From UHGV virus genome UHGV-0038964: a stretch of 13,966 bases of DNA. The stretch is one strand, 5' to 3'. Every line of letters starts with the position of its first letter. Within the stretch, counting starts at the first letter, position 1. Below the pieces are notes generated by a model. That model was not told the origin of the DNA. It saw only the letters and a list, made by a program, of their open reading frames with translations, and did no database searches. The stretch comes from a virus. Below are positions 172 through 13,966 of this stretch, in pieces. Both the position numbers and the translations under genes were made by a program.

Positions 172-381
172 ATGGCTTTCATTCCACCAACCATCGACGA
201 TGTTAGACATTGCTCTAACGCTTTATCTGTAGACCCCGCCGAAACCGACGCTGCCCGCGCCATTGCTGAACACTACTCAAAGATATCCAATCAGGAGTAC
301 CGCATCACCCAAGACGACCTGGATGACCTCACTGACACAATCGAATATCTCATGGCCACTAACCAGCCAGACTCACAATAA
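172..381 (+). CDS. coi: Coi-like C1-repressor inactivator (69 aa)
   Basis: ATG at 172 with a GAGG Shine-Dalgarno about 9 nt upstream; small acidic 69-aa protein directly upstream of and co-oriented with the 283-aa c1-like gene. Size and position match the P1 coi-c1 arrangement as I recall it. Confidence 0.6.
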   Translation: MAFIPPTIDDVRHCSNALSVDPAETDAARAIAEHYSKISNQEYRITQDDLDDLTDTIEYLMATNQPDSQ

Positions 382-397
382 ATGCACTAATAAATCT
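381..397 (+). promoter_or_regulatory. C1 operator-like 17-mer (AATGCACTAATAAATCT) between coi and c1
   Basis: 14/17 identity to the P1 C1 operator consensus ATTGCTCTAATAAATTT, read directly; it overlaps the coi stop codon and lies about 95 nt upstream of the c1 start, as expected for an autoregulatory site. Confidence 0.4.
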
Positions 398-426
398 ATT
401 ATTTTCGTTGGATCCTTCTATAATGG

Positions 427-469
427 TGGCCAACAACTCCCAGTGTAATTCGCTGTGAGTTGTTGGCCA
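427..469. repeat. Perfect 13-bp inverted repeat (TGGCCAACAACTC / GAGTTGTTGGCCA) with a 17-nt spacer, just upstream of the c1 ribosome-binding site
   Basis: Read directly: arms at 427-439 and 457-469 are exact reverse complements; the GGAGGAGG Shine-Dalgarno of c1 follows at about 479-486. Confidence 0.5.
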
Positions 470-491
470 TGTCAATTCTGGAGGAGGATCA

Positions 492-1343
492 ATGATAAAT
501 TATGTCTACGGCGAACAACTGTACCAGGAGTTCGTCAGCTTCAGGGATCTCTTTCTAAAAAAAGCTGTTGCACGCGCCCAACACGTTGATGCCGCCAGCG
601 ACGGTCGTCCTGTACGCCCGGTTGTCGTTCTGCCGTTCAAAGAAACGGACAGCATTCAGGCTGAAATTGATAAATGGACTTTAATGGCGCGGGAACTGGA
701 ACAGTACCCAGACCTCAATATCCCAAAGACTATTTTATATCCTGTGCCTAACATCCTTCGCGGTGTGCGTAAGGTTACGACCTATCAGACAGAAGCTGTA
801 AACAGCGTCAACATGACCGCTGGCCGCATTATTCATCTGATTGATAAGGACATTCGCATCCAAAAAAGCGCGGGGTTCAATGAGCACAGTGCGAAATACA
901 TAGAGAACCTGGAAGCAACAAAAGAGCTAATGAAGCAGTACCCGGAGGATGAAAAATTCCGTATGCGCGTACACGGCTTTAGCGAAACAATGCTGCGCGT
1001 TCACTACATCTCCAGTAGTCCTAACTACAATAACGGTAAATCAGTTAGTTACCATGTGCCGCTGTGTGGCGTGTTTATCTGCGATGAAACTCTCCGTGAT
1101 GGAATCATCATCAACGGTGAATTCGAGAAAGCAAAATTTAGCCTTTATGACTCCATAGAACCGATCATCTGCGACCGCTGGCCACAAGCAAAAATATATC
1201 GCCTGGCAGATATTGAAAATGTAAAAAAACAAATTGCCATCACTCGCGAAGAGAAAAAGGTTAAGTCAGCCGCATCAGTTACGCGCAGCCGTAAAACCAA
1301 GAAGGGGCAGCCAGTAAACGACAACCCCGAAAGCGCGCAATAA
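492..1343 (+). CDS. c1: C1-like master repressor of lysogeny (283 aa)
   Basis: ATG at 492 with GGAGGAGG 5 nt upstream; 283 aa with a Lys/Arg-rich C-terminal tail. Length, the coi partner upstream and C1-operator-like sites elsewhere in the window fit P1 C1. The identification rests on recalled length and context, not on an alignment. Confidence 0.7.
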   Translation: MINYVYGEQLYQEFVSFRDLFLKKAVARAQHVDAASDGRPVRPVVVLPFKETDSIQAEIDKWTLMARELEQYPDLNIPKTILYPVPNILRGVRKVTTYQTEAVNSVNMTAGRIIHLIDKDIRIQKSAGFNEHSAKYIENLEATKELMKQYPEDEKFRMRVHGFSETMLRVHYISSSPNYNNGKSVSYHVPLCGVFICDETLRDGIIINGEFEKAKFSLYDSIEPIICDRWPQAKIYRLADIENVKKQIAITREEKKVKSAASVTRSRKTKKGQPVNDNPESAQ

Positions 1344-1346
1344 ATT

Positions 1347-1376
1347 ATGCCCGGCATCAACCGGGCATTCTTCCAT
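1347..1376. terminator. Bidirectional intrinsic terminator between convergent c1 and the HNH-motif gene
   Basis: Stem ATGCCCGG (1347-1354), loop CATCAA, stem CCGGGCAT (1361-1368); T-rich sequence follows on the + strand (TCTTCCATTATT) and on the - strand (AATTTATTG). Confidence 0.6.
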
Positions 1377-2387
1377 TATTCAGCCGCCACCGGTTTTAAC
1401 AAGCCAGCATCGAGCAGTTTACGCGTCAACCACTGCTGGCCTTTACCCGTTAATTGAGGCGTCAACCGTATCTGATAGCCATCTTCATCATCCAGCACCA
1501 CTTCTTTCACCGTGAAATAATCGACTATGACGAACGATATAAGGCGTAATGTGAGCGCCAGCTCCCGCAGCTCCACAGCCACAGCATGGACGGGAAGCCA
1601 CAAAGTCCATGTACTCGGGCAATTTTAGCGATTGAAGTTTTGGTATTTTGAAATGCGCCATACCTGGGTCGGAGTCAACATCCACAGGGCATACTTTTGC
1701 ACGCATCGGCGCGGCGCGTTCTTCCATCATTTGAACATATGCTGTAGCGCGATCGTCATACGGGCGAATATCCGCCTCTTTCAGAGGTCCGCTATCCTGC
1801 GGAGTAGCCTTCATCTTATTTATTGATATGCGGCAGACTTCTTCCGGCATCAGGTGCATCATGTTGCGCATGAAAGCCCACCAGCACAGCTCCTGAATAC
1901 TTAAATCATGGCTATTTGAAAGGCCCATTTCCTGACGGGCGACATCCAGTATCCAGTTAACGCGATTATTGTGCAGCGTTTCTTTCAGCTCATTAAAACC
2001 ACGCATCCGGTAATGGTTATCGTGATGCCAGCACAACAACACCGCGCTATTGTCTCGTTCTGCGTGGACAATATGGTTGTCACACCAACTACGATCTGCG
2101 GCCTGGCATTGACCCTCTTTCCTACGCAACCACGCCACCAGCGCGTCAATTCCACCAATACGGCGAAACAGTTCATCGCTGTTAAAAAACGGCTGCAACG
2201 CCTCATTTGTTGCCATGGTTTGCTCCGTAACAACGAGGCCGTCTTCCATGTGCTCGATTAACTCACGCGGCACCGGCTCCATAATAAATTTACGGCCAGC
2301 CTCCACCAGCTTTCGGACCTCCTGATCCACTTTGAACGTGGCGAGGCCAAGCTCTTTCTGTACAAAGGGAGTAATTACGGCTTTCAC
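1376..2387 (-). CDS. HNH-motif protein (DUF968-like guess) with an apparent frameshift; main frame 1488-2387, C-terminal segment continues in another frame at 1376-1603
   Basis: GTG start at 2387 with AAGGTG 5 nt upstream. Internal motif CDNHIVH...N...LLCWHHDNH resembles an HNH/zinc-finger nuclease core. The last 35 residues of the 299-aa frame are low-complexity ([14 protein letters not shown]...), while the overlapping frame encodes a protein-like 75-aa tail. Confidence 0.5.
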
Positions 2388-2414
2388 ATCACACCTTTAA
2401 TCACTGATTGGGCT

Positions 2415-2594
2415 TTATCTGCTGCCCGGCATTATCTGTTTAAGCACAACCATTTCCTGACGGCATAACACAGCAATAGCAGTCCTGGCTCCAATTTGCT
2501 TACCAACCAGGTATTGCTTTACCTCGCGGCGACTCACGCCATCAAGAAGCATCTTTAACGCTTCACGGGACAATTTGTTGTATTTGCGTGCCAT
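2415..2594 (-). CDS. Small basic protein (59 aa), possible helix-turn-helix; post-doc gene
   Basis: ATG at 2592-2594, four nt after the doc stop codon (2599-2601); Lys/Arg-rich. The track ORF 2415-2615 begins further upstream inside doc, so I trimmed it to the first ATG after doc. Confidence 0.4.
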   Translation of the reverse strand: MARKYNKLSREALKMLLDGVSRREVKQYLVGKQIGARTAIAVLCRQEMVVLKQIMPGSR

Positions 2595-2598
2595 TAAT

Positions 2599-2979
2599 CT
2601 ACTCCGCAGAACCATACAATCTACGTAACGTGGCGGCGACAGAAGATACAGATATCTCGCCAGTCGCAGCGCCTACAGTAAGGTCTGCCAGTTCAGGTGA
2701 ATCAAATACCTGCACCCCGTTACGGCGTAGAAATAGCAGCGCACTGTTTAGCGCGGTACGCTTATTGGCATCATTGAATATATGCCCTCTCGCTGTAGCC
2801 ACCAGGTAGGTGGCGGAGACTTCGAAAAGGTCGGTGATCTCTTCGTAGGCAACTCTGGCCTGAACTCTCCCGATAATGGCCTCTGCCCTACCCGGATCTG
2901 ACATTCCCGGCAGGCCGCCGTAGCGGCTTATATTCGCATCATGAAGCGCAATAAGTTCTTCCGGTGATATATGCCTCAT
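2599..2979 (-). CDS. doc: Doc toxin (Fic-fold kinase, death-on-curing), 126 aa
   Basis: Protein [22 protein letters not shown]... with the Fic/Doc motif [11 protein letters not shown]; matches P1 Doc as I recall it. Its ATG overlaps the phd stop (TAATG). Confidence 0.9.
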
Positions 2980-3200
2980 TATCGGTTAACCAGTTCCTTG
3001 TTGGTGGAGTCCAGGGTGTCAAACAGGGATGCAAATTCAGCATCCAGCGCCGCTTTTTTGTAGGCTTCGAAAGTAGCCTTGCTGACAATTACTGCTGGCT
3101 CACGGCCTCTGCGGGTGATTTCAACCTCTTCCCCGGCTTCAACATTGTTGAGCACTTCAGAAAGGTTGCCGCGCGCGGTACGGAAGTTAATGGATTGCAT
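2979..3200 (-). CDS. phd: Phd antitoxin (Phd/YefM family), 73 aa
   Basis: [41 protein letters not shown]... matches P1 Phd as I recall it; true ATG at 3198-3200 with GAGGTG upstream. The track start at 3206 is a GTG two codons earlier. Confidence 0.9.
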
Positions 3201-3206
3201 AAACAC

Positions 3207-3233
3207 CTCGTGTACTCGTTATGTGTACACAAT
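3207..3233. promoter_or_regulatory. Putative Phd/Doc autoregulatory operator (GTGTAC core at 3210-3215 and palindrome TGTGTACACA at 3222-3231)
   Basis: Two GTGTAC-containing sites immediately upstream of the phd start, one a perfect 10-bp palindrome. Phd is known to autoregulate at palindromic sites in its promoter; the exact site sequence is not recalled. Confidence 0.35.
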
Positions 3234-3272
3234 TATAAACTTCACAGGCATAAAGCACCAGCACTTTGCAGC

Positions 3273-3662
3273 TTAAATCACCGGACAGTCATCAAATTCC
3301 CCACTTCGGGCATCATTGATGACATGAGTGATCACACCAAAAACAGCATTACTACCCGTGTAACCATCGTCATCTACTGGTAACGCCTCTTTCTTCCCGG
3401 TGCTTAAATCCTCCAGGTGCTGGCGCGGATACTTTCGGTATCTCTTTATGCGATATTCACCCTCCATAGCGCAGACAAGCAGCGAACCATCAACCGGAGT
3501 AAGCGAGGAATCAACCACCAGCAAAGCACCCTGCAATATTCCCTCACGGTGATGGCTGTCTGCCGCCCGCATGAAGTATGTCGCTGATGGATGCCTGATT
3601 AGTTGCTGATCAAGAGAAATTCTGCTTTCAACATAATCCGCCGCAGGAGAAGGGAAGCCCAT
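3273..3662 (-). CDS. humD: HumD, UmuD'-like polymerase V accessory subunit homologue (LexA/S24 peptidase fold), 129 aa
   Basis: ATG at 3660-3662 with GAGGTGA upstream; UmuD'-like sequence; gene order humD-phd-doc as in P1; LexA box immediately upstream. Confidence 0.8.
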   Translation of the reverse strand: MGFPSPAADYVESRISLDQQLIRHPSATYFMRAADSHHREGILQGALLVVDSSLTPVDGSLLVCAMEGEYRIKRYRKYPRQHLEDLSTGKKEALPVDDDGYTGSNAVFGVITHVINDARSGEFDDCPVI

Positions 3663-3681
3663 AGCGTTTTCACCTCAACAA

Positions 3682-3701
3682 TACTGTTTATTTATACAGT
3701 A
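3682..3701. promoter_or_regulatory. LexA (SOS) box TACTGTTTATTTATACAGTA
   Basis: CTGT at 3684-3687 and ACAG at 3696-3699 with an 8-nt AT-rich spacer; a perfect CTGT-N8-ACAG palindrome about 20 nt upstream of the humD ATG, in the divergent region shared with the + strand gene at 3837. Confidence 0.75.
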
Positions 3702-3836
3702 TACATTAAAGAGACACCTTTGGTGCAAACGCGTTATGTACATCAACCACCGCAGATGATTTTGTGCGCTTTGCTACTATTCATCACCAACGGATCAGCG
3801 TAACCTCGTTGCCAATCAGTTAATAAGGAATTAGCT

Positions 3837-4412
3837 ATGCCTAATCGCATTCCTCTCGATCCTGTATTGCCCAAAAATTTTGACTGCACTCCTAACGAGA
3901 AACGCTCTAAAGCTCAGCTGGACGCCTGGTGGGATCATCCGTATGGAGTTACACAATCTGACGGGAAAATTGTTGTTTTTTGTCTAAACGGTGGCGCGTG
4001 GGACCGTCCATCCATGCTTTGTTTGGCAGATAACTATGATGACGCCTGTGAACTTGCAGAAAGAAAGCAGGCAAGCTGGGTAAAAACACGGTCTAAACCG
4101 TCATTCATGTTTTCAATAGAACCGCCATTTATCCTAGCAAGGATGCCGCAGCGACCAGACCAGGAACAGCAAGAGATTGTTGCCGAATTTGATTCAAGGG
4201 AAGAAATGAACCTCTTCACGATGAAACAGGAACAAGAAGAGAATCTTGGAGTTTCACCATTTTTGGATCACAAGAGTATGAACCTCGACCTGCTTATCTG
4301 GTACAGCAATGAGCTTGAGTTATCGCTGTCCCGGCTTGAAAAAGAAAAAGCAGCTATCCAGGCACAACGTGAAGCTGTGTTGGCGCGGATTAAAGAAGTA
4401 CAGAACGGATGA
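3837..4412 (+). CDS. Hypothetical protein (191 aa) with a coiled-coil C-terminus; divergent from humD
   Basis: ATG at 3837 with AAGGAA 7 nt upstream; no overlapping competitor ORF; the C-terminal 60 aa are heptad-like (LELSLSRLEKEKAAIQAQREAVLARIKE). Function unknown. Confidence 0.55.
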   Translation: MPNRIPLDPVLPKNFDCTPNEKRSKAQLDAWWDHPYGVTQSDGKIVVFCLNGGAWDRPSMLCLADNYDDACELAERKQASWVKTRSKPSFMFSIEPPFILARMPQRPDQEQQEIVAEFDSREEMNLFTMKQEQEENLGVSPFLDHKSMNLDLLIWYSNELELSLSRLEKEKAAIQAQREAVLARIKEVQNG

Positions 4413-4418
4413 TTGCTG

Positions 4419-4682
4419 TTATTTTTTGATGGTATCGTCTTTTTGGTATACCGGATCGCTTCCCTTTGGCAACTGGAGGCTTAACTGCCGGTAGTGCCGT
4501 AGACGTTCCATGAAATAGGTGCGCAGGTTCTCTGGTTGCTCGCGGGCTACCTGTTCAGCTATGACAGGTATGTTCAATCGCTCTTTGTAGGCAACCCCCC
4601 TAGCAGCCAGGTCAACGTTAACTTTATTCCTTTCTTCCTGGCTTTTAGCTGCTATGTTCCATTCGTTCATATTAAATCCCAT
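4419..4682 (-). CDS. hot: Hot, homologue of DNA polymerase III theta subunit (HolE-like)
   Basis: The stretch [42 protein letters not shown] resembles E. coli theta ([42 protein letters not shown], recalled). Start is either the ATG at 4682 or the ATG at 4670. Confidence 0.7.
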
Positions 4683-5138
4683 CCAGAATAATTGAATAAC
4701 GGCTATTATTTAGTCGCCGCAATATCTTCAAAGTTTTTTTCTCACCCCATTGCTTTTTGCGCACAGCTTATCTGGCTTGCGGTGCGCCGAAATGTAAATT
4801 CGCCTTCAGAGTTATCCACAAAGTTATGCACTTGCAACGAGGCCATTTTCCTCATACTGTGTTTGCACACACAGGAAATGGATATTTTATTAATTGAATT
4901 TTATTAAATAATAATGATAAGGAGAAAATTTGAGATGTAATCATGACATTAATAGATAGGGCCTGCATTACAGGCCCCAACTACATCAAGGAATTCACAG
5001 TTCCCTGATTTTTATACCGAAAACATGTGCCGTAAGTTCACGTTAACGACTTTCTTTCACCGAATCCAACTATATAGAGGTTGGGTTTCTACGTCAACGT
5101 GAGAGCACACAGCTTTACATTTGACGAGGATTACCCTG

Positions 5139-5276
5139 ATGATTGTAATTTTTCAGTTTCTAAGTGCATTTTTAAATGCGCCTGTTCTTAGCCAAGTGCT
5201 GGCGATTGTCTTCATCGTGGTTCTGATATGGTTTTTCAAGTCAGTGATAAACAGAGGCGTGCGCTGGCTTATTTAA
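5139..5276 (+). CDS. Unannotated small hydrophobic protein (45 aa): MIVIFQFLSAFLNAPVLSQVLAIVFIVVLIWFFKSVINRGVRWLI
   Basis: Below the ORF-track size cutoff. ATG at 5139 with GAGGA about 8 nt upstream, TAA at 5274-5276; a single long hydrophobic segment with a basic C-terminus. It lies in a region otherwise free of coding sequence. Confidence 0.4.
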   Translation: MIVIFQFLSAFLNAPVLSQVLAIVFIVVLIWFFKSVINRGVRWLI

Positions 5277-5459
5277 TGTCGCGCTGAGATATTAATTCCC
5301 TTGCTGTTTAACCATTTTTTGTGTGTGCTGGTGAGCGTGTGAAGGCTCAATTTGTTGCCCACCAGTATTTACTATTTCTAAGCTCCACAGTGTCACTTCC
5401 GCACAAACAACTTAGCGCGGAATCAGTATTCGGCCCAAGATGTAAAAAGCCAACCTGCG

Positions 5460-5726
5460 TTATGGTTCGCATTTCCAAATAGTGTTCTGAACGCCCGTGC
5501 CGGGCGCGAGATGTGGATTAGCGTTCGCGCTATGCTGATATACGGCTTTAGACTTTCCATATTGCTGACAGGCTTTATCTGCGGTTTTTTGCAGGCTATC
5601 CAGCCCATACCAGCCATCAGACTGGATGCTTACCTTTTCACCGTCATTGTATTGCACCATTGCACACCCGGACATAGCCAGCATCGCACCGACAATAACG
5701 CTTTTCCATAAAACTCTATGCAACAT
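5460..5726 (-). CDS. Small lipoprotein (about 88 aa)
   Basis: Signal peptide MLHRVLWKSVIVGAMLAMSGC with a lipobox-like MSGC cysteine; the true start is probably the ATG at 5724-5726 (the track start at 5732 is a TTG). Confidence 0.55.
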   Translation of the reverse strand: MLHRVLWKSVIVGAMLAMSGCAMVQYNDGEKVSIQSDGWYGLDSLQKTADKACQQYGKSKAVYQHSANANPHLAPGTGVQNTIWKCEP

Positions 5727-5731
5727 ATACA

Positions 5732-5761
5732 AAAATCCCCTCTGTGAATTGAGGGGATTTT
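5732..5761 (-). terminator. Intrinsic terminator ending the upstream minus-strand operon
   Basis: Stem 5732-5742 pairs with 5751-5761 (AAAATCCCCTC / GAGGGGATTTT); on the - strand the stem runs into TTTTTGTAT. The same stem supplies the GAGGGG Shine-Dalgarno of the lipoprotein gene. Confidence 0.6.
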
Positions 5762-5795
5762 AGCATGGTGATCAGATATCAGCTTTATCAGGAAT

Positions 5796-6545
5796 TTAAT
5801 CAGCCTCCAGTGGCAATAACGCCTTAGCCATTTCATGAACCAACATGGCATCAATGACGCCTAGCGTATGGCCCGGCTTAATCTTTAATGCGGCCTCAAG
5901 ATAGCCTCTTTCCAGAGTGGTTTTTACGCTTTTCCTGGGCGCCTGTTGGGAACTATCCGGAAGATCCGGATGGTTCCCAGCCTCATAAGCTATCCGCAAC
6001 CAGTGCATGAATGTTTCCGCAGACACACAACCGCAGTCCACATCGATTTTCCCGCGTTGCTGTTCCAGCCATTGCCCAAAATCCAACCTGTAAGCCTTAC
6101 TTTCAAGTTCATCGCCATTGAACTCGACTTTCTGCGACGCTATGAGAGCTGATTCGTATTGTTCGCGAGTGACAACTGACTGGTATTCATCGCTATCAAG
6201 ATCACCAATTGGAAGCTCAATCTCACAACAAAAATTGCGCCCAAAGAACGTGTCTTTTTTGTGGTCTGAGCCAAAAGCAAAAGTCGCGCATGGCGCCATT
6301 AAATTGGCACTGAGCAGGCGACAATCGATCATACCATCAGGCCACCCGCCGCACTTAGGCAGCTCCTTCACTAACAAGTCGATAAGCTTCATTTTTTTAT
6401 CATCTTTGCTAGTTGCTAACGCCATTTTTGCAAGTCCAAATACTTCATCTGCCGTATATCCAGCACCGTGACCATACATTTCGATACGGGAAATAATCTC
6501 TGATATACGCTCTTTAGTGATTCTGGTCATTTCTTTTTGCGCCAT
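5796..6545 (-). CDS. Hypothetical protein (249 aa), last gene of the operator-gated operon
   Basis: ATG at 6543-6545; long ORF with no recognisable motif; followed by the terminator at 5732-5761. Confidence 0.5.
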   Translation of the reverse strand: MAQKEMTRITKERISEIISRIEMYGHGAGYTADEVFGLAKMALATSKDDKKMKLIDLLVKELPKCGGWPDGMIDCRLLSANLMAPCATFAFGSDHKKDTFFGRNFCCEIELPIGDLDSDEYQSVVTREQYESALIASQKVEFNGDELESKAYRLDFGQWLEQQRGKIDVDCGCVSAETFMHWLRIAYEAGNHPDLPDSSQQAPRKSVKTTLERGYLEAALKIKPGHTLGVIDAMLVHEMAKALLPLEAD

Positions 6546-6901
6546 TTCTTTTCACATTCCTTAGTCCATTTTTCAATGTTCATTTTGGCAATATCAGTCA
6601 TTCCATCGCCTAAGAAATACCTTTCCCGGTATGTCTTGCACTTAAACCACACTACAATAGCCACCAGCCAGAAAATAAAAGGCCAGACAGCAATACCAAC
6701 TACAGCCACGATAAAGTCCAATAGACACAAATGAAGCTCCCCTACTTCTGTTTCAGGCAATATCTTTAAAGAGTTAAACAGCAGACTGAACGAATGGTCG
6801 TATGCAGTAGCGCTATAAGACATACAATCCATATAATTAAAATCATAGCCTGCGGCTGCCGCCCATAATGGGCAGTCAAGAAAATGTTTGAATGTCATCA
6901 T
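6527..6901 (-). CDS. Hypothetical membrane protein (124 aa), Lys-rich C-terminus
   Basis: Tandem ATG ATG at 6896-6901; hydrophobic stretch LCLLDFIVAVVGIAVWPFIFWLVAIVVWF; 3' end overlaps the start of the 249-aa gene by 19 nt. Confidence 0.5.
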   Translation of the reverse strand: MMTFKHFLDCPLWAAAAGYDFNYMDCMSYSATAYDHSFSLLFNSLKILPETEVGELHLCLLDFIVAVVGIAVWPFIFWLVAIVVWFKCKTYRERYFLGDGMTDIAKMNIEKWTKECEKKWRKKK

Positions 6902-6967
6902 ATAAATTTAATCAGTTACACAGTGTGGCTGCTTCCCTGCCGTAACAGCAGGGTAATAAAGTTATAA

Positions 6968-7132
6968 TCAGTCTCCAGATAGAGATATAGCTAACGCACC
7001 AACGAGGAATAAGGTGCTACCAGCCAATGCACCGCAGCTCTCCGTTCCCCATTCAACGCCACCAGCCAAAGCCACAAAAAAACCACAAACACAGACAAAT
7101 ATAAACGTCGCCCAAAACTGTTTCTTTTTCAT
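6968..7132 (-). CDS. Unannotated small membrane protein (54 aa): MKKKQFWATFIFVCVCGFFVALAGGVEWGTESCGALAGSTLFLVGALAISLSGD
   Basis: Found by hand translation. Its ATG (7130-7132) overlaps the TAA stop of the upstream 97-aa gene (TAATG coupling); GGAG upstream; two hydrophobic segments. Confidence 0.45.
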   Translation of the reverse strand: MKKKQFWATFIFVCVCGFFVALAGGVEWGTESCGALAGSTLFLVGALAISLSGD

Positions 7133-7425
7133 TATGGGGTGCTCCAGTTATCTTCAATTACAATGCTCAACCTTTGTAGCCATTCTGCTAATTTCAGCAT
7201 TGCTTCTCTTTCGCTTAAACCACGCGGGAAATCATCAAGCGATATTGTTGGCTTGAAGTTCCCGAAATTATCCATTTCAACTGTCAGATTTTGCTCTAAC
7301 ACGGTATTCCTGACACGGCTATTGTGCCGAAGCAAATATACTGATCGTGATTCATTAGTTTTGTGGTCGAATTGATATTCGGTAAGTATCATCTGGCTTT
7401 TGCCATGACTATTACCTCTCCACAT
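7132..7425 (-). CDS. Hypothetical protein (about 97 aa)
   Basis: Track ORF 7132-7512 trimmed to the ATG at 7423-7425 (MWRGNSHGK...), which has a GAGG Shine-Dalgarno; the upstream part of the track ORF is instead taken by the 40-aa peptide in another frame. Confidence 0.45.
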   Translation of the reverse strand: MWRGNSHGKSQMILTEYQFDHKTNESRSVYLLRHNSRVRNTVLEQNLTVEMDNFGNFKPTISLDDFPRGLSEREAMLKLAEWLQRLSIVIEDNWSTP

Positions 7426-7432
7426 ACTTACC

Positions 7433-7555
7433 TCACTTAATAAAACAACTCCATGCGTAGTTGATGATTTTTTCCCACGCAATATAAATCTGCACTCCAG
7501 CAGTAAAACCAAAGCCTACAATTGCTGAAAAAATCAAAACATTTACTTTTGACAT
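7433..7555 (-). CDS. Unannotated small hydrophobic peptide (40 aa): MSKVNVLIFSAIVGFGFTAGVQIYIAWEKIINYAWSCFIK
   Basis: ATG at 7553-7555, TGA at 7433-7435; single transmembrane-like segment; ends 8 nt before the 97-aa gene start. The Shine-Dalgarno is weak. Confidence 0.35.
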   Translation of the reverse strand: MSKVNVLIFSAIVGFGFTAGVQIYIAWEKIINYAWSCFIK

Positions 7556-7603
7556 TATAAAATTTCTCTCGGTGTCGTAGGTGATAGCACCATAATTGAT
7601 AAT

Positions 7604-7936
7604 TTAGTGAGTTAGCAGCTTCATTTTTTTGATGATTTCCGCATGAGCATCATCGTTATCAACACTTAGCTCGTTTAATGCTTCTCGCACTACATCAACT
7701 TCTTCAGGCTGAAAGAAGTCGTCGCGGTAATCACCAAATAGAACCGAAACCAGCCTGGCACCAGCAACATCAAGATTAGCGCTAACAGGTGGCTCGATAT
7801 CTCGCCCACAATTCCAGGCTTTTTGGGCTTCTTCCAGCGTGTAAACATGAGCGCGATCGATATCAGAGCTGTAACCATTGCCGTTATGGCAATGGAATGA
7901 AGCGTTATTACCCACAGTTTCACGCGAGCACATCAT
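7604..7936 (-). CDS. Hypothetical acidic protein (about 110 aa)
   Basis: The track ORF begins at a TTG (7978) overlapping the upstream gene; the first ATG pair at 7931-7936 lies just after that gene's stop, so the start is placed there. Confidence 0.45.
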   Translation of the reverse strand: MMCSRETVGNNASFHCHNGNGYSSDIDRAHVYTLEEAQKAWNCGRDIEPPVSANLDVAGARLVSVLFGDYRDDFFQPEEVDVVREALNELSVDNDDAHAEIIKKMKLLTH

Positions 7937-7946
7937 GTAAAAACGG

Positions 7947-8528
7947 TTACTCACTGGTTGCCCCCTGAATACGCTCAAACTCGATTACCCAAACCCAGGG
8001 ATTAGCGTTCCAACTTTCTTCGCCATAAATTGATTCCCATAGGCTACGGAAACCTGGGTAATGCTTATCGCCAATGAGGGTAAATTCTGTTGGTGCGCCC
8101 TCAGCCCTTGCATCGCATTCGCTGATATCGTTCAACCGCTCAACGCGCACGTTGGTAATTTCCAGCAAAATGCGCGATGCCCAGCGCGGCATGTGAATTG
8201 ATGGCGTCCACTTTTCTGATACTGGCTTATTACAAACCTCAACCGGAACCCGGTGCGTTTGTTCTGTCCAGGAGTTACGCACGCTTGCGCGATAAACCAG
8301 CGTTGCGACGTCCGTCGCTTTGCCATGTACCCGGTAGGTTTCACGAACCCAAATACGATCTCCCGGTTGACCATATGGACAATGTTTAGCAAGCAACTCT
8401 GCGGCCACTGCCCGTCCATAGAATTTTTCTTCAACAATCCTGCGAGTCTGTGTTTTATTCCCGCCAAGAATTGCCCGGACCATCTCATCGTTGAAAATCA
8501 TGCCGCGCTCTTTCACTTCGCCTTTCAT
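7947..8528 (-). CDS. Hypothetical protein (193 aa), tentatively ASCH-like (N-terminal MIFNDEMVRAILGGNKTQTRR)
   Basis: ATG at 8526-8528 with AAGGGGGA upstream. The GxKT.TRR segment resembles the conserved ASCH/PUA-like motif; this is recalled pattern, not an alignment. Confidence 0.5.
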   Translation of the reverse strand: MKGEVKERGMIFNDEMVRAILGGNKTQTRRIVEEKFYGRAVAAELLAKHCPYGQPGDRIWVRETYRVHGKATDVATLVYRASVRNSWTEQTHRVPVEVCNKPVSEKWTPSIHMPRWASRILLEITNVRVERLNDISECDARAEGAPTEFTLIGDKHYPGFRSLWESIYGEESWNANPWVWVIEFERIQGATSE

Positions 8529-8537
8529 GCATCCCCC

Positions 8538-8624
8538 TTACCCATGCGCGACAATGCCGCCAAAAGTGATAGAGAACAGCCAGAAATAGATCGCGGCCAT
8601 AATGATTTTGAATGCCGTGTTCAT
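8538..8624 (-). CDS. Unannotated small hydrophobic peptide (28 aa): MNTAFKIIMAAIYFWLFSITFGGIVAHG
   Basis: ATG at 8622-8624 with AGGAG about 8 nt upstream; TAA at 8538-8540, overlapping the Shine-Dalgarno of the 193-aa gene; first ORF downstream of the C1-operator-like site. Confidence 0.35.
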   Translation of the reverse strand: MNTAFKIIMAAIYFWLFSITFGGIVAHG

Positions 8625-8652
8625 ATTTTCAGCTCCTGTGATTGATTGGATA

Positions 8653-8683
8653 CATGCCGCGCCTTGCGGCATGTTTTTATTTT
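8653..8683 (+). terminator. GC-rich palindromic hairpin (CATGCCGC-gcctt-GCGGCATG) followed by TTTTTATTTT on the + strand
   Basis: Read directly. On the + strand it has the form of an intrinsic terminator, although no convincing + strand gene precedes it; on the - strand it sits in the 5' leader of the operon, between the predicted promoter and the 28-aa ORF. Confidence 0.45.
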
Positions 8684-8706
8684 CACTTTCTCTGTTTTAA
8701 AAATCA

Positions 8707-8723
8707 ATATTTATTAGAGCAAT
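8707..8723 (-). promoter_or_regulatory. C1 operator-like 17-mer (minus-strand reading ATTGCTCTAATAAATAT) with promoter-like elements just downstream
   Basis: 16/17 match to the C1 consensus ATTGCTCTAATAAATTT. On the - strand it is followed by TTGATT, a 17-nt spacer and GAAAAT, a plausible -35/-10 pair for the operon at 5796-8624. Confidence 0.55.
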
Positions 8724-9166
8724 TATTGTTGATGGAGAAGCGCGTTTTCATACTCCCTGACCATTAACGTAAGCACGCCGTGCCTCCTGAAAACACGCGC
8801 CACTTCAATCTTATCTTCCAGCGCGAACGCGATTTTACTTAGACCAATTTTCTTAAGGAGATCAATCTTTGCTGGGCCGTCATTTCTGTCATCGGTGGCA
8901 GGACGCATAGATAGCAAAGGCTCAGCCCCGTTTGTTACGTACTTCCGCAGCCAGGCTCGTGTTTTATCCCTTGCGATCTCACAGCGCCCGGTTACAAACC
9001 AGACCGTGTAAACGTTAAATAACTGGCGCACAATATCAATAACTGGAGTTATGGGAGTATCAGTGTCACAGGCGAGATTAAACTCGTTCCAGTCCTTTGT
9101 TAATGCACCTTTACCTGGTGGCGGAAGCAAATGCAGTCTGTCTTCAGTTGCCTCTGATATTGTTCC
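8723..9166 (-). pseudogene. 3' portion of a HAD-superfamily (DxDGT) phosphatase gene split by the IS3-family element
   Basis: The reading frame is open from the insertion junction at 9166 to the stop at 8723. Joined to the opposite flank it reads ...PYIVIVDIDGTISEATEDR...VWFVTGR...DKTR...ATDDRNDG, the HAD motif order, resembling the phosphatase domain of polynucleotide kinase-phosphatase. Confidence 0.6.
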
Positions 9167-9184
9167 TGAATCGCCACAGATAAT

Positions 9185-10090
9185 CTAGACACTTCCGAGC
9201 CGCTGATAATATTGTTTTTCGTATTCAGTTGGTGGCATATGATCACTCGAACCATGCCGACGCTTACTGTTATAAAACATTTCGATGTAATCAAAAATAT
9301 CACCGCGAGCTTCTTCTCGCGTTCCGTAGATCTTTTTCTTTATCCGTTCACGTTTCAGTAACTGGAAAAAACTTTCTGCGACTGCGTTGTCATGACAGTT
9401 ACCGCGACGGCTCATACTGCCCTCCAGCCCGTGTGATTTCAGGAACGACTGCCACTCATAGCTTGTGTACTGACTGCCTTGATCAGAATGAACCAGCACC
9501 TGCTTTTGAGGATTACGTCGCCACACGGCCATCAGAAGTGCATTCAGGACAATATCCTTTGTCATCCGGGGCTGCATTGACCAGCCAATAACTTTGCGCG
9601 AGAACAGGTCAACAACCACAGCCAGATACAGCCAGCCTTCGTGAGTCCGGATGTAGGTGATGTCCGTTACCCAACGCTCATCCGGTGCTTCCGGGTTGAA
9701 CTGCCGCTGGAGCCTGTTGGGCGTCACGATGCTGGTTTCACCCTTACGTGCCCGTGGGCTACGGTACCCGACCTGAGCCCTTATCCCGGCACGCTTCATC
9801 AGTCGCCAGACACGGTTAACTCCGCACTGTTGTCCGGTATCCCGCAGGTCGAGGTGGATCTTGCGATAACCATAAACGCAACCCGACTCCAGCCAGAACT
9901 GCTTTATCAGCCCCGTCAGTCTCAGGTCAGCATGATGCCGCCGTGAATCCGGCTGCTGAAGCTAGGCGTAAAAACCACTCGGATGCACATCCAGCACCCG
10001 ACAAAGCAGTCGGACAGGCCAGCAATGGGTGTTGTCACGGATAAAGGCGTACCTCAGTCGGACAGCTTTGCGAAGTACGCCGCGGCTTTT
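9185..10090 (-). pseudogene. IS3-family transposase orfB (DDE catalytic domain), interrupted by an in-frame TAG
   Basis: The orfB frame is open from the slippery site (about 10090) and reads ...LLCRVLDVHPSGFYA, then TAG at 9962-9964, then LQQPDSRRHHADLRLTGLIKQFWLESGCVYGYRKIHLDLRD... continuing into the track ORF 9185-9799. Confidence 0.7.
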
Positions 10091-10332
10091 TTTAATATGT
10101 CCCGTTCGTCGGTAACCCGCTTCAGCTCTTTCTGGAGGCGTCGGATCTCAGCCTGAGCGTCTGACTGGACTTTATTGGTTGAGGAATCCGGGCCATATGC
10201 CTTTATCCAGGCATAAAGACTGTGGGTGGTGATACCGAGACGTGTTGCCACGCTGGAAACAGAATGGCCGCGATCAACAACCTGTTTTACCGCTTCAATT
10301 TTAAACTCTTCGGGATAACGCTTACCGCTCAT
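10054..10332 (-). CDS. IS3-family transposase orfA (helix-turn-helix / leucine-zipper part)
   Basis: ATG at 10330-10332 with GAGAGG upstream (the track start at 10338 is a GTG); ends ...DILKKAAAYFAKLSD. The ATATTAAAAAAAGCC slippery heptanucleotide at 10085-10099 marks the -1 frameshift into orfB. Confidence 0.8.
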   Translation of the reverse strand: MSGKRYPEEFKIEAVKQVVDRGHSVSSVATRLGITTHSLYAWIKAYGPDSSTNKVQSDAQAEIRRLQKELKRVTDERDILKKAAAYFAKLSD

Positions 10333-10392
10333 GGGCACCTCTCTTTAAGTCATCTTAAATGACTCTGAGGTGTCTGTTAAACCCGTGGCGAT

Positions 10393-10461
10393 TCATCCAT
10401 CAATATCAACTATGACGATATACGGACGTTCCTGGTGTGCGTGTTTATTGAAAATACTCAA
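10393..10461 (-). pseudogene. 5' portion of the same HAD phosphatase gene (LSIFNKHAHQERPYIVIVDIDG), cut off by the IS
   Basis: In frame with the 3' portion once the IS and one TCC copy are removed. The only candidate start is the TTG at 10459-10461, with GGAGGG 4 nt upstream; the IS terminal TGA now supplies the stop. Confidence 0.45.
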
Positions 10462-10480
10462 ATGCCCTCCTCATTGGACG

Positions 10481-10513
10481 AAAAAAATGCTGGTGGGCGC
10501 ACTCCACCAGCAT
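10481..10513 (-). terminator. Intrinsic terminator downstream of the 420-aa gene
   Basis: Stem ATGCTGGTGG (10487-10496), 7-nt loop, stem CCACCAGCAT (10504-10513); on the - strand the stem is followed by a run of seven T. Confidence 0.6.
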
Positions 10514-10533
10514 TAAAAGTGACACTGTAACTG

Positions 10534-11796
10534 TCAGCGAACGTAAATAGTGCCGCCGTTCTCTTTTTCCCATGCATCGCTACGTGCATAGCAAACATCG
10601 AGAAGTCTTCTTGCCGCTGTTTCCTCTAAACCCAATTCGACAACCAACTGCTCATGACGGCGGGTAACCACATCAAACAGGGTATGCAGCCCTTTAGCTG
10701 CCAGATCATCAATAAATTCCGGTTCGAACGGCAGCTCTGCATCTGCCAACATAACCTCTTGCGCCCACTCGACACGGCGGACCAGTTCCGGGCGGCGGCT
10801 TTCCATCTCTTTACAGATCAATTCATGGAAGAACTCTACCCAACCTTCCGGCTGGAACTCGCGGAAAATGGCCAGCGGCTGGAAGTTTGGCATCAACCAT
10901 TCGTTGATTCGGATATCAATGGCATAGCCCATGTCGCAGCAGAACTGATAAGCAAAGTCCAGCTTAGAAACGATATAAGGACGCTCGTTATTGAACTCTT
11001 TAGGCGATGAGATCCCATAAGCCAGGAGGCGCGGGAAGAAGGAGATTTGCCCTAACGTCGGATGAAGTTTGCTTGCAGGGAAACGGCGCTCAGTAATGCC
11101 ATACATTTCCTTCTTGAGCGTCGCAAATTTGGCATTCTCATTAACCAGCGCGGTAACCTCTGCTTTTTTATTAGCAAATGCCACGCGCGCTTCGCTTGCA
11201 TCTTTAATAGTTTTTTTGAGCTGTTGGTTAAGATCGGCGACCTGCTTACGCAGTTCCTGTCGCTCGCTTTTAGCTTTGTTATAGCGTTTCTCAAGGTTAA
11301 AAGGATCAAGTTTCATGATCTCTTTATATTGAGATTTTAGCGTTGAAATCTGTGAGTTCCGCAGTTCAACCATCGCGGTCATTTCATTGAGTTTTGTTTC
11401 CAGCTCAATGCTTATACGTTCGGCATTATCAGCACGCTGGTTGGCGTCATGCGTCGCATCGTCGATCGCGTCCTGTTGCTGGCGTTTCAAATGTTCAATT
11501 TGTAGCTGAAGCTCTTCAATTTCTTTACCCTTCAGACCGAGATCCAACTGCATATTTTCAGCTGCATCTACCAGGGAGTTATGGCTATCAGCTTCTGCGT
11601 TATAAACATCAATAAGCTGTGCGTGAAGCATCTCCGCTGACTGAACCGCATTATCAAAAAAACGCGCTGTGAGGTCATCACAACTAACGCGGCGTTGCGC
11701 GGCCCGGATGTTCTGGATAATGGCTGGGATACCGGCATTCAGGACGTCAGGGATAGATACATTTTCGATTGATTGGTTTTGTGCTGAAGTGCTCAT
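10534..11796 (-). CDS. Hypothetical protein (420 aa): N-terminal coiled coil of about 200 aa plus a C-terminal globular domain
   Basis: Long clean ORF with its ATG at 11794-11796. Residues about 80-230 are heptad-rich and charged (EIEELQLQIEHLKRQQQ..., ERQELRKQVADLNQQLKK); the C-terminal half is aromatic and Cys-containing. No recognisable catalytic motif. Confidence 0.6.
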   Translation of the reverse strand: MSTSAQNQSIENVSIPDVLNAGIPAIIQNIRAAQRRVSCDDLTARFFDNAVQSAEMLHAQLIDVYNAEADSHNSLVDAAENMQLDLGLKGKEIEELQLQIEHLKRQQQDAIDDATHDANQRADNAERISIELETKLNEMTAMVELRNSQISTLKSQYKEIMKLDPFNLEKRYNKAKSERQELRKQVADLNQQLKKTIKDASEARVAFANKKAEVTALVNENAKFATLKKEMYGITERRFPASKLHPTLGQISFFPRLLAYGISSPKEFNNERPYIVSKLDFAYQFCCDMGYAIDIRINEWLMPNFQPLAIFREFQPEGWVEFFHELICKEMESRRPELVRRVEWAQEVMLADAELPFEPEFIDDLAAKGLHTLFDVVTRRHEQLVVELGLEETAARRLLDVCYARSDAWEKENGGTIYVR

Positions 11797-11797
11797 T

Positions 11798-12016
11798 TCA
11801 AAGTTCCGTATTAGCTTGTGCTTCGGTCATTTTTCCTAAGTATGAAGGTGGAAGGACTACGCAATTTGTATCCAGTCCCTCACCTATGGCAGCCTGTAAA
11901 ATTCTGGCTAAGGTGAGTCTCTTGTTGCGATACCTGGTGATTACATGCCTGATACCGCCGGTCGGCGTAACAAAGGCGATCAGCCAGTAGTGATATTTCC
12001 GTCGGAATGGCCACAT
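11798..12016 (-). CDS. Hypothetical small protein (72 aa), first gene after the paired C1-operator-like sites
   Basis: ATG at 12014-12016 with AAGGTG upstream; its stop lies 1 nt from the 420-aa start, indicating translational coupling. Confidence 0.45.
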   Translation of the reverse strand: MWPFRRKYHYWLIAFVTPTGGIRHVITRYRNKRLTLARILQAAIGEGLDTNCVVLPPSYLGKMTEAQANTEL

Positions 12017-12030
12017 AGCGCACCTTGTAG

Positions 12031-12096
12031 ATTGCTCTAATAAAAAACGTGATGAGTGTACATCACGTTTTAAAAATATGAAATTATTAGAGCAAT
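12031..12096. promoter_or_regulatory. Two inverted C1 operator-like 17-mers flanking a 10-bp-stem hairpin
   Basis: ATTGCTCTAATAAAAAA at 12031-12047 (+ orientation); ATTGCTCTAATAATTT as the reverse complement of 12081-12096; between them AAACGTGATG-agtgta-CATCACGTTT (12045-12070), which on the - strand is followed by TTTTTT. Confidence 0.55.
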
Positions 12097-12097
12097 A

Positions 12098-12799
12098 TTA
12101 TTCTGATTCTCGCTCAAAAAATGAGCTGATAAGGGGAAGCCAATCCTCTGACACTTCGCGAGGTCGCGGTTTGCCGTGGAAAAAGATTATTCGGCAGTCT
12201 TTTGGTAATGCCCCATTCCCCCTGGAGTAACGCGCGCTCGCATATTTTGAACCAGGTTCCACAACATCGGCCTTGTAACTTACAAACCATCCTGGATACA
12301 GATCCTGAAATGCTGGTGTATCATCGCCCATAACCTTTCGTAAGAACCCCTGGTCACCCCAGCACTCAGTAGTGACACAACGAGAAATCCAACCTTCCGG
12401 ATCTTGCCAGAATGAACTCCAGATATGCGCTTTTACACTATTTGGTATCCACAGGGCACCGCTACCACGATATTGTGGATGGTAAAAATCCCTAAGCATG
12501 GTGAAGCTGGTTGGTGGATTCTCAAGGATTGGGCGTATATCACCGGCAATAACTGTGTCCAAATCCAGATAGAACAGATCATCTGTTATATCCGGTCGGA
12601 ACAACTCGATTTTCGTCCACCAGCCACGGCACTTTTGCCACTGGTTGATCAATGGGACAACTTTGACGCCAGGTACATGTAAACGCTTCAGGTCTGTCAG
12701 GCAAATAATTTCATAGCCTTTTGGCAGTTGATTAACCAGCCACTGCACATCGGAAGCGTTATAGTCACCACCAGAGCGAAGAACTAAAGCAATCTTCAT
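12098..12799 (-). CDS. Hypothetical protein (233 aa), tentatively a nucleotide-sugar (DxD) transferase-like protein
   Basis: ATG at 12797-12799 overlaps the ppp stop (ATGA coupling). The segment [13 protein letters not shown] resembles a DxD glycosyltransferase motif; the assignment is weak. Confidence 0.5.
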
Positions 12800-13488
12800 G
12801 CTGCACCATCACCTTTCACTTTCATCAATGTCAGGTTTCCGCAAAATACGGCACCAGTGTCGATATAATGCTGATTCCAGAATGTCTTCGGGCTTTTCAC
12901 CGGAGTGTGACCAAAGATAAAACGATCTGCGCCCGAAATTTCGCCACCAATATCATCCATCGAATCACTGATACGCTCGCGCGCCCAGACAACGTTGAAA
13001 AGCGGCACCTCCTTACCGAATTGATATTCATTATCCGGATAGTCGGCATGGGCTATAACGATAGTTTCTTGCCCGGTGTTCAACTCAATGATATAGGGCA
13101 GTCGTCTTACCAACTCCACCAGCGCCCTGGCTAATATTTCCTGATCAGCGTCCAGCATGAAGAACCATTGACCGCCATTCATTAGCCAATTATTCACGTT
13201 GCCATCAGGACTTAACGCATCAATCATCAGCCGCTCATGGTTGCCCATAACCGCTCTGAACCATGGCATCTGCAATAGCTCCAAGCATTTAACATTTTCG
13301 GTGCCGCGATCGATAAGGTCGCCGACCGATATCAGTAAATCCTGCGCAGGGTCAAAATCCACACGATGGAGTTCGGACATCAGTCTGGTGTAGCAACCAT
13401 GCAGATCACCAACAACCCAGATATTCCTGTATTTGGTACCGTCGATACGGTGATAAATTGTTGGTGCCATCATGTATTCTTCAGCCAT
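12796..13488 (-). CDS. ppp: Ser/Thr protein phosphatase of the lambda-phosphatase (PPP/calcineurin-like metallophosphatase) family
   Basis: All three signature motifs are present: GDLHGC, GDLIDRG and GNHE. The start may instead be the ATG at 13471-13473 (MMAPTIY...), which overlaps the upstream stop (ATGA). Confidence 0.85.
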
Positions 13489-13814
13489 TCTTTAAGAGTC
13501 ATCTGCGGAATACCTCCCATTTTCCCGCATGAAACAACGTCAATCTGTTCACGCGCAGACTGGAATAACAAAGGCAGGTGACTTAGATTTTTTGGCGTGC
13601 CGCCGGAATGAACGCGTGGTTCTTGCGTAGCGTCAACGCCCACCAGGGCTACATGTTTGAATCCGATATGGAAAGCCAGGTTCAGAGCACCATATGCACT
13701 ATTGCCGCTGGCAATTTCATTCTCATCTTCGCAAAGGCCGAAATGTGCGGACCAGCGCCACGCCCACCACTCGGGAGAATTCGTATTTTTTGGCTCCGTG
13801 CCGCGCTCAGCCAC
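13470..13814 (-). CDS. Hypothetical protein (about 114 aa), start uncertain
   Basis: The frame opens after a stop at 13884-13886; the first candidate start is a GTG at 13812-13814 with a poor Shine-Dalgarno. An overlapping ORF in another frame (13682-13894) begins with ATG, so a frameshift or wrong start is possible. Confidence 0.35.
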
Positions 13815-13966
13815 ACGACGGAAGCACAGAACGCCGTCTCTGACCTCACGTTCTTTAACATCGGGTAACCTTTTTTCTGCCCTTCAGCCTTCATTTTCCC
13901 GGCGGTTGCTTTTGAACGTTTCCCTCTGAAGTGGTTTACTGAATTTGGCCACCTGAACAGAGGTGA

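Follow-up and report, generated by a model that had tools for sequence, protein, structure and literature searches.

Four homologues of P1 C1 operators in a decayed P1-like plasmid prophage, two of which enclose a probable terminator hairpin

Introduction

In phage P1, the C1 repressor binds each asymmetric 17-bp operator as a monomer; the co-repressor Lxc assists it, and sigma-70 promoters overlapping the sites are blocked. Two bivalent operators of P1, Op72a/b at ban and Op99a/b at c1, resemble the Op86 pair in that two convergent 17-bp sites form an imperfect palindrome at one promoter. In Op72a/b and Op99a/b, however, the sites overlap by 6 bp at an offset of 11 bp, whereas the offset of the Op86 sites is 49 bp, and between them lies a hairpin, probably together with the core of the promoter. 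Overlap of terminator and promoter between adjacent operons is a compact layout typical of phage genomes, and intrinsic (Rho-independent) terminators which lie between operons, with the next promoter overlapping, likewise consist of a stem-loop and a U run about 30 nt past a stop codon. As read from the sequence, the Op86 arrangement would nonetheless differ from ordinary intrinsic terminators, since its U-tract doubles as part of a repressor site and its loop represents a candidate −10 box.

Here we describe the C1 operators present in 13,966 nucleotides of P1-like (Punavirus) DNA (UHGV-0038964; the whole stretch is hereafter called ‘the window’), which is 95–98% identical to P1 over the aligned parts. 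By its sequence, the window is a decayed P1-like plasmid prophage, that is, a segment of plasmids such as pYLPD4b. The element is defective: unlike P1 (AF234172 / NC_005856), it carries an IS1 in imcA, located between P1coi/Oc1d and coi, an IS3-family insertion in pap and other genes downstream of Op88, and it is devoid of both pacAB-lpa-Op94 (and thus of the late-gene activator lpa) and Op83. The ppp-pmgQ unit is left without its own promoter. Since this promoter and Op83 are lost and lpa is absent, the C1 sites may regulate little of consequence in this element, and they are of little importance outside annotation. The segment nevertheless keeps an intact C1 repressor along with its operators, even though two other operators have gone, together with the late-gene activator and the packaging genes. 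A search of Rfam gave no match anywhere in the window.

Results and Discussion

Scanning the window with the asymmetric 17-bp consensus ATTGCTCTAATAAATTT, allowing at most three mismatches, yielded exactly four sites with 14–16 matching positions each: 381–397 (14/17), 8707–8723 (16/17), 12031–12047 (14/17) and 12080–12096 (15/17). These are the sites that had been proposed in an initial annotation on the basis of a consensus that proved to be the published one (PMC8546580); three of the coordinate pairs given there are exact, and the fourth (12081–12096) was one base short. A matrix scan, named there as the test that could refute the proposal, instead came out strongly for it. The weight matrix was built from 14 P1 operators, none homologous to the window sites, and its training sites score 17.7–28.9 bits; the four sites obtain 22.8, 27.2, 20.5 and 24.1 bits (in the order given above), the next window site only 8.9 bits, so that a gap of more than 11 bits divides the four from everything else in the window. 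This next site (8832–8848, inside pap) is sub-threshold and was taken as chance.

The four sites align with Oc1a, OpmgT, OpmgRb and OpmgRa of the P1 genome record AF234172, which labels these operators C1 binding sites. With respect to the same genes, they are placed as Op99a, Op88, Op86b and Op86a are in P1, on the same strands and with the same 49-bp offset; Op99a, Op99b and Op86b are identical to their P1 counterparts, while Op88 and Op86a differ by one base each. As had also been proposed, each site stands at the 5' end of a transcription unit: it abuts the upstream gene's stop codon, and a gene block on the same strand follows it. One may ask if these are chance AT-rich 17-mers which do not bind C1, since the consensus is AT-rich in its 3' half, as is the intergenic DNA here. 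Shuffling, however, gives an expectation of 0.05 matches against the four seen (four were reached in 0 of 200 shuffles), the independent matrix sets the four sites apart from the rest by the gap described above, and the sites lie at annotated P1 operator positions which are conserved in diverged relatives. With its probability reduced to almost nothing, the chance reading is refuted for practical purposes, and we consider it very probable that the four sites are genuine P1-type C1 operators, homologues of Op99a, Op88, Op86b and Op86a. The hexamers of the P1-annotated promoters are likewise present at the operators, most of those annotations being predictions; a simple promoter scan called none of the P1-annotated promoters of these units.

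The operators are already known from P1, and finding them here is correct but ordinary. The initial interpretation stays within published P1 biology except for the role of the hairpin, which is absent from the annotation of the P1 record. The only new detail is the conserved hairpin, read as a terminator, between the two Op86 sites, which probably carries the −10 box of the promoter as well.

The cognate repressor is encoded on the same element as the operators: c1 (492–1343, plus strand) specifies the 283-aa repressor of lytic functions, which is identical to P1 C1.100 at 280 of 283 residues (99%). Oc1a (Op99a; 381–397, plus strand; AATGCACTAATAAATCT) is identical to P1 Oc1a, and its first base coincides with the final base of the stop codon of coi. 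Oc1a overlaps by 6 bp with the convergent Oc1b (Op99b; 392–408, minus strand; ACGAAAATAATAGATTT), identical to P1 Oc1b, and the two form a bivalent c1 operator, as annotated for P1 (Oc1ab). The pair (381–408) would cover the −35 hexamer of Pc1 (P99a; 395–424, plus strand; −35 TCTATT at 395–400, −10 TATAAT at 419–424; transferred from the P1 annotation), an arrangement that would provide for c1 autoregulation. Inside coi lies a weak operator homologue, Oc1c (Op99c; 209–225, plus strand; ATTGCTCTAACGCTTTA), which is identical to P1 Oc1c and scores 14.5 bits with a 20-site matrix and 7.8 bits with the 14-site matrix. Oc1b, the weak Oc1c and the loss of Op94 and Op83 had all been missed in the initial annotation.

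Op86b (OpmgRb; 12031–12047, plus strand; ATTGCTCTAATAAAAAA) is identical to P1 OpmgRb, and Op86a (OpmgRa; 12080–12096, minus strand; ATTGCTCTAATAATTTC), which begins 1 nt past the pmgQ stop codon, shows one difference from P1 OpmgRa. The two sites are convergent, that is, inverted, and 32 bp lie between them. They do not show the overlap of about 6 bp that characterizes bivalent operators and represent two monovalent operators, as the P1 record annotates them. Both would flank the promoter of the unit they control, which comprises pmgR (11798–12016, minus strand; 72 aa) and pmgS (10534–11796, minus strand; 420 aa); the end of this unit is marked by a predicted strong terminator-like hairpin (10486–10514, minus strand; 11 pairs, 6 of them G-C, then TTTTT) located 20 nt after the pmgS stop codon. 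Upstream lie pmgQ (12098–12799, minus strand) and ppp (12796–13488, minus strand); transcripts of this unit would run into the hairpin between the Op86 sites. It had been named the ‘ppp operon’, though here it has neither promoter nor operator of its own left. Relatives in which PmgS is 53–71% identical have operators at the same two positions and, whenever the two Op86 sites can be recognised, the same 49-bp offset. Such diverged relatives were found by protein search and contig look-ups; BLAST against phages and plasmids gave almost exclusively copies above 95% identity, and a PmgS search of genome contigs yielded just two near-identical loci, both from E. coli.

That the inverted pair brackets a hairpin, as initially noted, is readily seen: at 12044–12071 (minus strand) the transcript reads AAAACGUGAUG-UACACU-CAUCACGUUUU, then UU, and we infer that this structure serves as an intrinsic terminator for pmgQ transcripts. 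The core stem comprises 7 bp, CGUGAUG/CAUCACG (12048–12054 with 12061–12067), and the stem reaches 11 bp with an AAAA/UUUU extension (the earlier description of a 10-bp stem came close enough); the loop has 6 nt. A U6 run extends from 12047 to 12042, the sequence after the core stem being UUUUUUAUU (minus strand), and the hairpin lies about 30 nt past the pmgQ stop codon. The transcribed strand thus shows, after a stop codon, a stable stem-loop with a U-rich tract immediately behind it. The fold energy is −12.9 kcal/mol with the A/U extension and −8.5 kcal/mol for the 7-bp core alone, which contains four G-C pairs; the 91-nt context folds at −26.9 kcal/mol (z = −6.8). On the minus strand, the U-tract of the hairpin is templated by the last six A of Op86b, and it is because its last six bases encode this tract that Op86b ends in AAAAAA and not in the consensus AATTT.

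A rule-based scan for terminators and promoters called nothing in 11700–12400; it probably missed the hairpin because maximal extension of the stem uses up four U. The 2004 P1 genome paper of Lobocka et al. reportedly lists P1 terminators, and apart from that list, which lay outside its scope, a full-text literature search (Op86, Op88, pmgQ, terminator) found no discussion of the hairpin. The GenBank record AF234172, as listed, contains no terminator features.

Comparison with relatives argues for a functional RNA structure. The hairpin is kept in ten P1-like relatives, with 93.5% of cells paired as against 37–55% for slid partners, and four of the 11 stem pairs are altered on both sides among these ten sequences; as the ten represent only about six lineages, the evidence from covariation is modest. 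In every sequence the sense hairpin is more stable than the antisense one, in six of ten by 4–8 kcal/mol, owing to U.G wobbles. A U5–U6 tail follows the hairpin directly in eight of the ten relatives; the remaining two (L012 and L013) have a tail, UCUUGAUU, which is a poor U-tract, and in both Op86b is degenerate. Taken together, the conservation supports the view that the hairpin is most likely a terminator after pmgQ. The 28-nt hairpin and its U6 run would then end transcripts arriving from ppp-pmgQ, and expression of pmgR-pmgS would depend on that unit's own C1-controlled promoter.

Two other readings of the hairpin deserve consideration. It might not terminate transcription at all, but act as a cruciform or palindrome that aids C1 at both sites, as a stabiliser or processing site at the 3' end of pmgQ mRNA, or simply as arms flanking a conserved −10 box. 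The stem is indeed short and escapes a simple scan, two relatives are without a good U-tract, in P1 and in the window both strands form a perfect palindrome, and the resemblance of the loop to a −10 hexamer would explain part of the conservation without RNA structure. Yet the stem positions change in pairs such that pairing is kept, U.G wobbles are tolerated on the sense strand only, which argues for RNA and not DNA, and the U5–U6 run stands directly after the stem in eight of ten sequences; moreover, even a 3'-end stabiliser would presuppose that transcripts are terminated or processed here. A role other than termination is hence unlikely in our judgement. Alternatively, in RNA that reads through, Op86a and Op86b could base-pair into a 13-bp outer helix, making the composite hairpin the functional unit. 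Such a helix is included in the minimum-energy fold of the 91-nt minus-strand RNA, and one of its pairs is changed on both sides in a Salmonella relative (L009). However, the third, unpaired operator of that relative, the homologue of Op88, has the same C-to-T change (ATTGTTCTAAT); the double change is thus a matter of operators co-varying with the repressor rather than of pairing. Elsewhere the outer helix, being operator sequence, shows no compensatory change. Pairing of the two operators, which we rejected on account of the change shared with the third operator, is accordingly a very improbable explanation.

The promoter of pmgR can be placed in two ways. In the P1 record it is predicted at 12067–12095 (minus strand), with the −35 hexamer TTGCTC (12095 to 12090) inside Op86a, the −10 hexamer TAAAAC (12072 to 12067) over the A-extended 5' arm, and a start near 12060 in the loop. 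This placement has the support of the AF234172 annotation, the same TTGCTC-17-TAAAAC arrangement recurs at Op88, and the −10 hexamer matches at four of six positions in both P1 and the window. On the other hand, TAAAAC does not have the conserved final T, and relatives have TGAAGC, TGCGGC or TTAAGG in its place, five of them with just one or two matches out of six. We would give the promoter of the P1 record somewhat less than an even chance of being the one used.

The loop of the hairpin itself offers a candidate −10 hexamer of our own proposing, TACACT (12055–12060, minus strand), with a 16-nt spacer to a −35 hexamer TTCATA (12082 to 12077, minus strand). The loop conforms to TAnnnT in ten of ten relatives (TACACT, TATCAT or TATTAT; 4–5 of 6 matches), and the −35 hexamer at a spacing of 16 or 17 nt matches at 3–4 of 6 positions in relatives; in the window this promoter reaches 8 of 12 hexamer matches, which is under the scan threshold. 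TATCAT also occurs between an inverted operator pair in a distant Citrobacter element, where the operator sequence is different. From these comparisons we infer that the loop hexamer would make a better −10 box for pmgR than the annotated TAAAAC. It is thus tempting, if tentative at a little under even odds, to propose that across P1-like phages the hairpin is put to dual use: as terminator of ppp-pmgQ, with its U-tract in Op86b, and, through its loop, as the −10 box of pmgR-pmgS, which provides for escape from termination. Transcripts of pmgR, starting within the 3' arm of the hairpin or immediately behind it, would never form the terminator, and C1 would sit at about −48 to −32 and at +2 to +18, clamping the promoter from both sides. 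If this dual use is real, the promoter predicted in the P1 record is misplaced by about 12 bp, and the comparative data suggest that it should be re-examined. They likewise suggest that terminator, promoter and two operators are packed into about 70 bp at Op86, much as initially proposed; that proposal agrees with the sequence and with its conservation in relatives, the step of termination being deduced from these.

Op88 (OpmgT; 8707–8723, minus strand; ATTGCTCTAATAAATAT) differs from its P1 homologue OpmgT at one position, and its first base doubles as the final base of the pap stop codon. Op88 would overlie the −35 hexamers of two predicted promoters, TTGCTC-17-TAAAAC (8722 to 8694, minus strand; transferred from P1 P2pmgT) and TTGATT-17-GAAAAT (8707 to 8679, minus strand; transferred from P1 P1pmgT), both of which would drive the downstream gene block (8624 to 5796, minus strand). 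This block is not P1 pmgT/U/V but a region of variable cargo, and none of its seven genes has a match in Pfam. The region between pap and lxr, RD-5, has been described as variable (PMC6906374). An operator is kept at the position of Op88 in most relatives, and its conservation along with a promoter, over a block that differs among P1-like elements, points to a repressor-controlled slot for variable cargo.

C1 operators of a P1 relative

The window was searched with the asymmetric 17-bp P1 operator consensus ATTGCTCTAATAAATTT (PMC8546580), which is the consensus used in the initial annotation, allowing up to 3 mismatches. Exactly the four matches reported there were found, at 381-397 (+ strand; 14/17), 8707-8723 (- strand; 16/17), 12031-12047 (+ strand; 14/17) and 12080-12096 (- strand; 15/17), against an expectation of 0.05 from shuffled sequence; in 200 shuffles a total of four never occurred. 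The P1 record (AF234172) annotates 20 operator half-sites as C1 binding sites, and 22 C1 binding operators have been counted on the P1 genome (PMC8546580). A weight matrix built from 14 of these half-sites, with the 6 homologous to window sequence excluded, provided the scan proposed in the initial annotation. It gives 27.2 bits to 8707-8723, 24.1 to 12080-12096, 22.8 to 381-397 and 20.5 to 12031-12047, compared with 17.7-28.9 bits for the training sites and 8.9 bits for the next best window position (99.9th percentile over all positions, -2.0). The operators are confirmed, far beyond chance.

At the homologous positions the P1 record annotates, in the same order, Oc1a (formerly Op99a), OpmgT (Op88), OpmgRb (Op86b) and OpmgRa (Op86a), the last controlling pmgR and pmgS. 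The window copies of Op99a and Op86b are identical to those of P1, those of Op88 and Op86a differ by one base, and the c1 product shares 280/283 residues with P1 C1.100. Judged by positions, sequences and this C1 identity, a P1 relative here carries an operator set that is already known; the observation was right and its interpretation essentially so, for a feature already known from P1. Two further operators annotated in P1 had not been listed: Oc1b (392-408, - strand), whose 6-bp overlap with Oc1a turns the c1 operator into a bivalent one, and Oc1c (209-225; ATTGCTCTAACGCTTTA), a weak site within coi.

Transcription units and the variable block

The placement of the operators at the 5' ends of transcription units likewise held, since each starts on, or at most 2 bases from, the preceding stop codon (of coi, pap or pmgQ) and is followed by a same-strand gene block. 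The window contains the promoter hexamers listed in the P1 record, that is, those of Pc1 (395-424; TCTATT-18-TATAAT), the two Op88 promoters (TTGCTC-17-TAAAAC and TTGATT-17-GAAAAT) and the Op86a promoter (TTGCTC-17-TAAAAC); all except Pc1 are 'predicted' in that record, and a simple promoter scan called none of them. A strong terminator-like hairpin (10514->10486, - strand; 11 pairs, 6 G-C, TTTTT), 20 nt past the pmgS stop codon, probably closes the pmgR-pmgS unit, so that pap, located downstream, would need its own promoter.

The genes downstream of Op88 (8624->5796) differ from P1 pmgT/U/V and are partly shared with Salmonella phage SJ46 (region 5334-8436); a Pfam search with the seven ORFs yielded no match. 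The pap-lxr interval is variable among P1-like elements (PMC6906374), and an operator upstream of the variable block recurs in most relatives examined. Conservation of Op88 ahead of differing genes thus suggests that a predicted, C1-controlled promoter drives variable cargo. Another strong terminator-like hairpin (8652-8674, + strand; 10 pairs, 6 G-C, then TTTTATTTT) separates the Op88 promoters from the block's first - strand gene; it on the + strand would stop antisense transcription out of the variable region and on the - strand would be a 5'-UTR hairpin.

The Op86 pair and its hairpin

As initially described, Op86b and Op86a are inverted around a hairpin; the two sites converge with their AT-rich 3' ends inward, at an offset of 49 bp. 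On the transcribed (-) strand the hairpin reads AAAACGUGAUG-UACACU-CAUCACGUUUU, followed by UUAUU. Its core is a 7-bp stem with 4 G-C pairs (-8.5 kcal/mol), lengthened by an A/U extension to 11 bp (-12.9 kcal/mol), and its 91-nt context folds at -26.9 kcal/mol (z = -6.8). The six U of the hairpin (12047->12042) are the final six bases of Op86b, which is why this operator ends AAAAAA rather than AATTT.

We compared the pmgQ-pmgR intergenic regions of Cronobacter phage JK004 and seven contigs with PmgS 53-71% identical to that of the window, which together with the window and P1 make ten P1-clade sequences from about six lineages. The hairpin is kept in all ten, and the 49-bp offset wherever both operators are recognisable. 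Stems vary (CGUGAUG, CAUGGUG, CGUGGUG, UGUGGUG, and a shifted CGGCAUG stem in contig L015), yet 93.5% of cells are paired versus 37-55% with slid partners, and 4 of 11 stem pairs are changed on both sides. The U.G wobbles of the relatives pair only on the sense strand; in six of the ten sequences its hairpin gains 4-8 kcal/mol in stability over the complementary one. A U5-U6 tract directly follows the stem in eight; the other two, contigs L012 and L013, carry UCUUGAUU there, and their Op86b is degenerate. From the conserved pairing, compensatory changes and the U-tract we conclude, for about six lineages, that a sense-strand RNA hairpin appears to be under selection, its most likely role being that of an intrinsic terminator for transcripts arriving from pmgQ.

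Pairing of Op86a with Op86b in RNA is unsupported: the sole matched change, C to T in the Salmonella P1-like contig L009 (PmgS 71% identical), also occurs in a third operator, which argues for repressor/operator co-variation instead. All three L009 operators (1199-1215, 1248-1264, 3340-3356) read ATTGTTCTAAT in place of ATTGCTCTAAT, an operator variant that is genome-wide and suggests that C1 specificity is altered or relaxed.

Position of the pmgR promoter

The -10 hexamer predicted in the P1 record, TAAAAC (12072->12067), does not end in the conserved T, and the relatives have TGAAGC, TGCGGC or TTAAGG at this position (1-2 of 6 matching). The hairpin loop, in contrast, reads TACACT, TATCAT or TATTAT, i.e., TAnnnT, in all ten sequences, with a -35-like hexamer (TTCATA, TTTACT or TTGATT; 3-4 of 6) 16-17 nt upstream. 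In a distant Citrobacter element the inverted operator pair differs (ACCATACTAATT...AATTAGTATGGT) and there is no hairpin, yet TATCAT again lies between the sites. Taken together, the invariant loop motif, the decay of the record's hexamer and the Citrobacter arrangement give a -10 within the loop a chance that we put at just under even. With the -10 in the loop, pmgR transcription would start near 12048, the nascent RNA would lack the 5' arm and escape termination, and C1 would bind at about -48..-32 and +2..+18. The proposed packing of terminator, promoter and operators into 70 bp holds under either placement of the -10, with the terminator as its putative component. Hairpin conservation and the tentative loop -10 are small additions for annotators of P1 rather than a discovery.

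Upstream of the pmgR homologue, contigs L006 (2424-2472) and L016 (1215-1262) carry an inverted pair of a different half-site, CATACTAAT / GATACTAATTTAT, with a spacing of only 17-19 bp and no hairpin. Both are distant relatives (L006 PmgR, 35%; L016 PmgS, 27% identity), and the two-operator layout seems to outlive the operator sequence.

State of the element

The window is P1-like (Punavirus) DNA, 95-98% identical to Salmonella phage SJ46, P7 and P1 over 68-80% of its length, and many enterobacterial plasmids, e.g., E. coli pYLPD4b (L002), carry segments 100% identical to it. Blocks collinear with P1 are 37-1342 (imcA'-imcB-coi-c1), 1517-5333 (pdcB'-pdcA-doc-phd-humD-lxr-hot and neighbours), and 8437-9166 and 10397-13867 (pap-pmgS-pmgR-pmgQ-ppp-pmgP'). 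Positions 1-36 are the end of an IS1 (L002 3250-4036); its simple insertion into imcA duplicated 9 bp of target and parts coi and c1 from P1coi, the coi promoter, as well as from operators Oc1d and Oc1e beyond the window, so that Coi may have lost expression from its own promoter. At 1343-1516, 174 bp stand in place of about 3.5 kb that P1 and SJ46 have here (pacB, pacA, lpa, Op94 and the 3' end of pdcB), and the C-terminus of pdcB (1488-2387, DUF968) is altered. A deletion junction at 13862-13867, where the equivalent of pmgP'-pmgO-pmgN-Oppp(Op83)-pmgM' is removed (about 1.2 kb), leaves the ppp-pmgQ unit without its own promoter and operator. Finally, a 1229-bp IS3-family element (9167-10395, 3-bp duplication; orfA 10054-10338, HTH_Tnp_1; orfB 9185-9799, rve) interrupts pap and is missing from the otherwise identical pYLPD4b. 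The operators are thus intact, carried by a prophage remnant without lpa (late-promoter activator) and pacAB (packaging).

An inverted copy of the final 41 window bases (13926-13966; L002 16694-16734) follows 1.85 kb further along pYLPD4b (18547-18587); the two copies flank an IS30 transposase gene and could represent the terminal inverted repeats of an element that is composite or belongs to the host.
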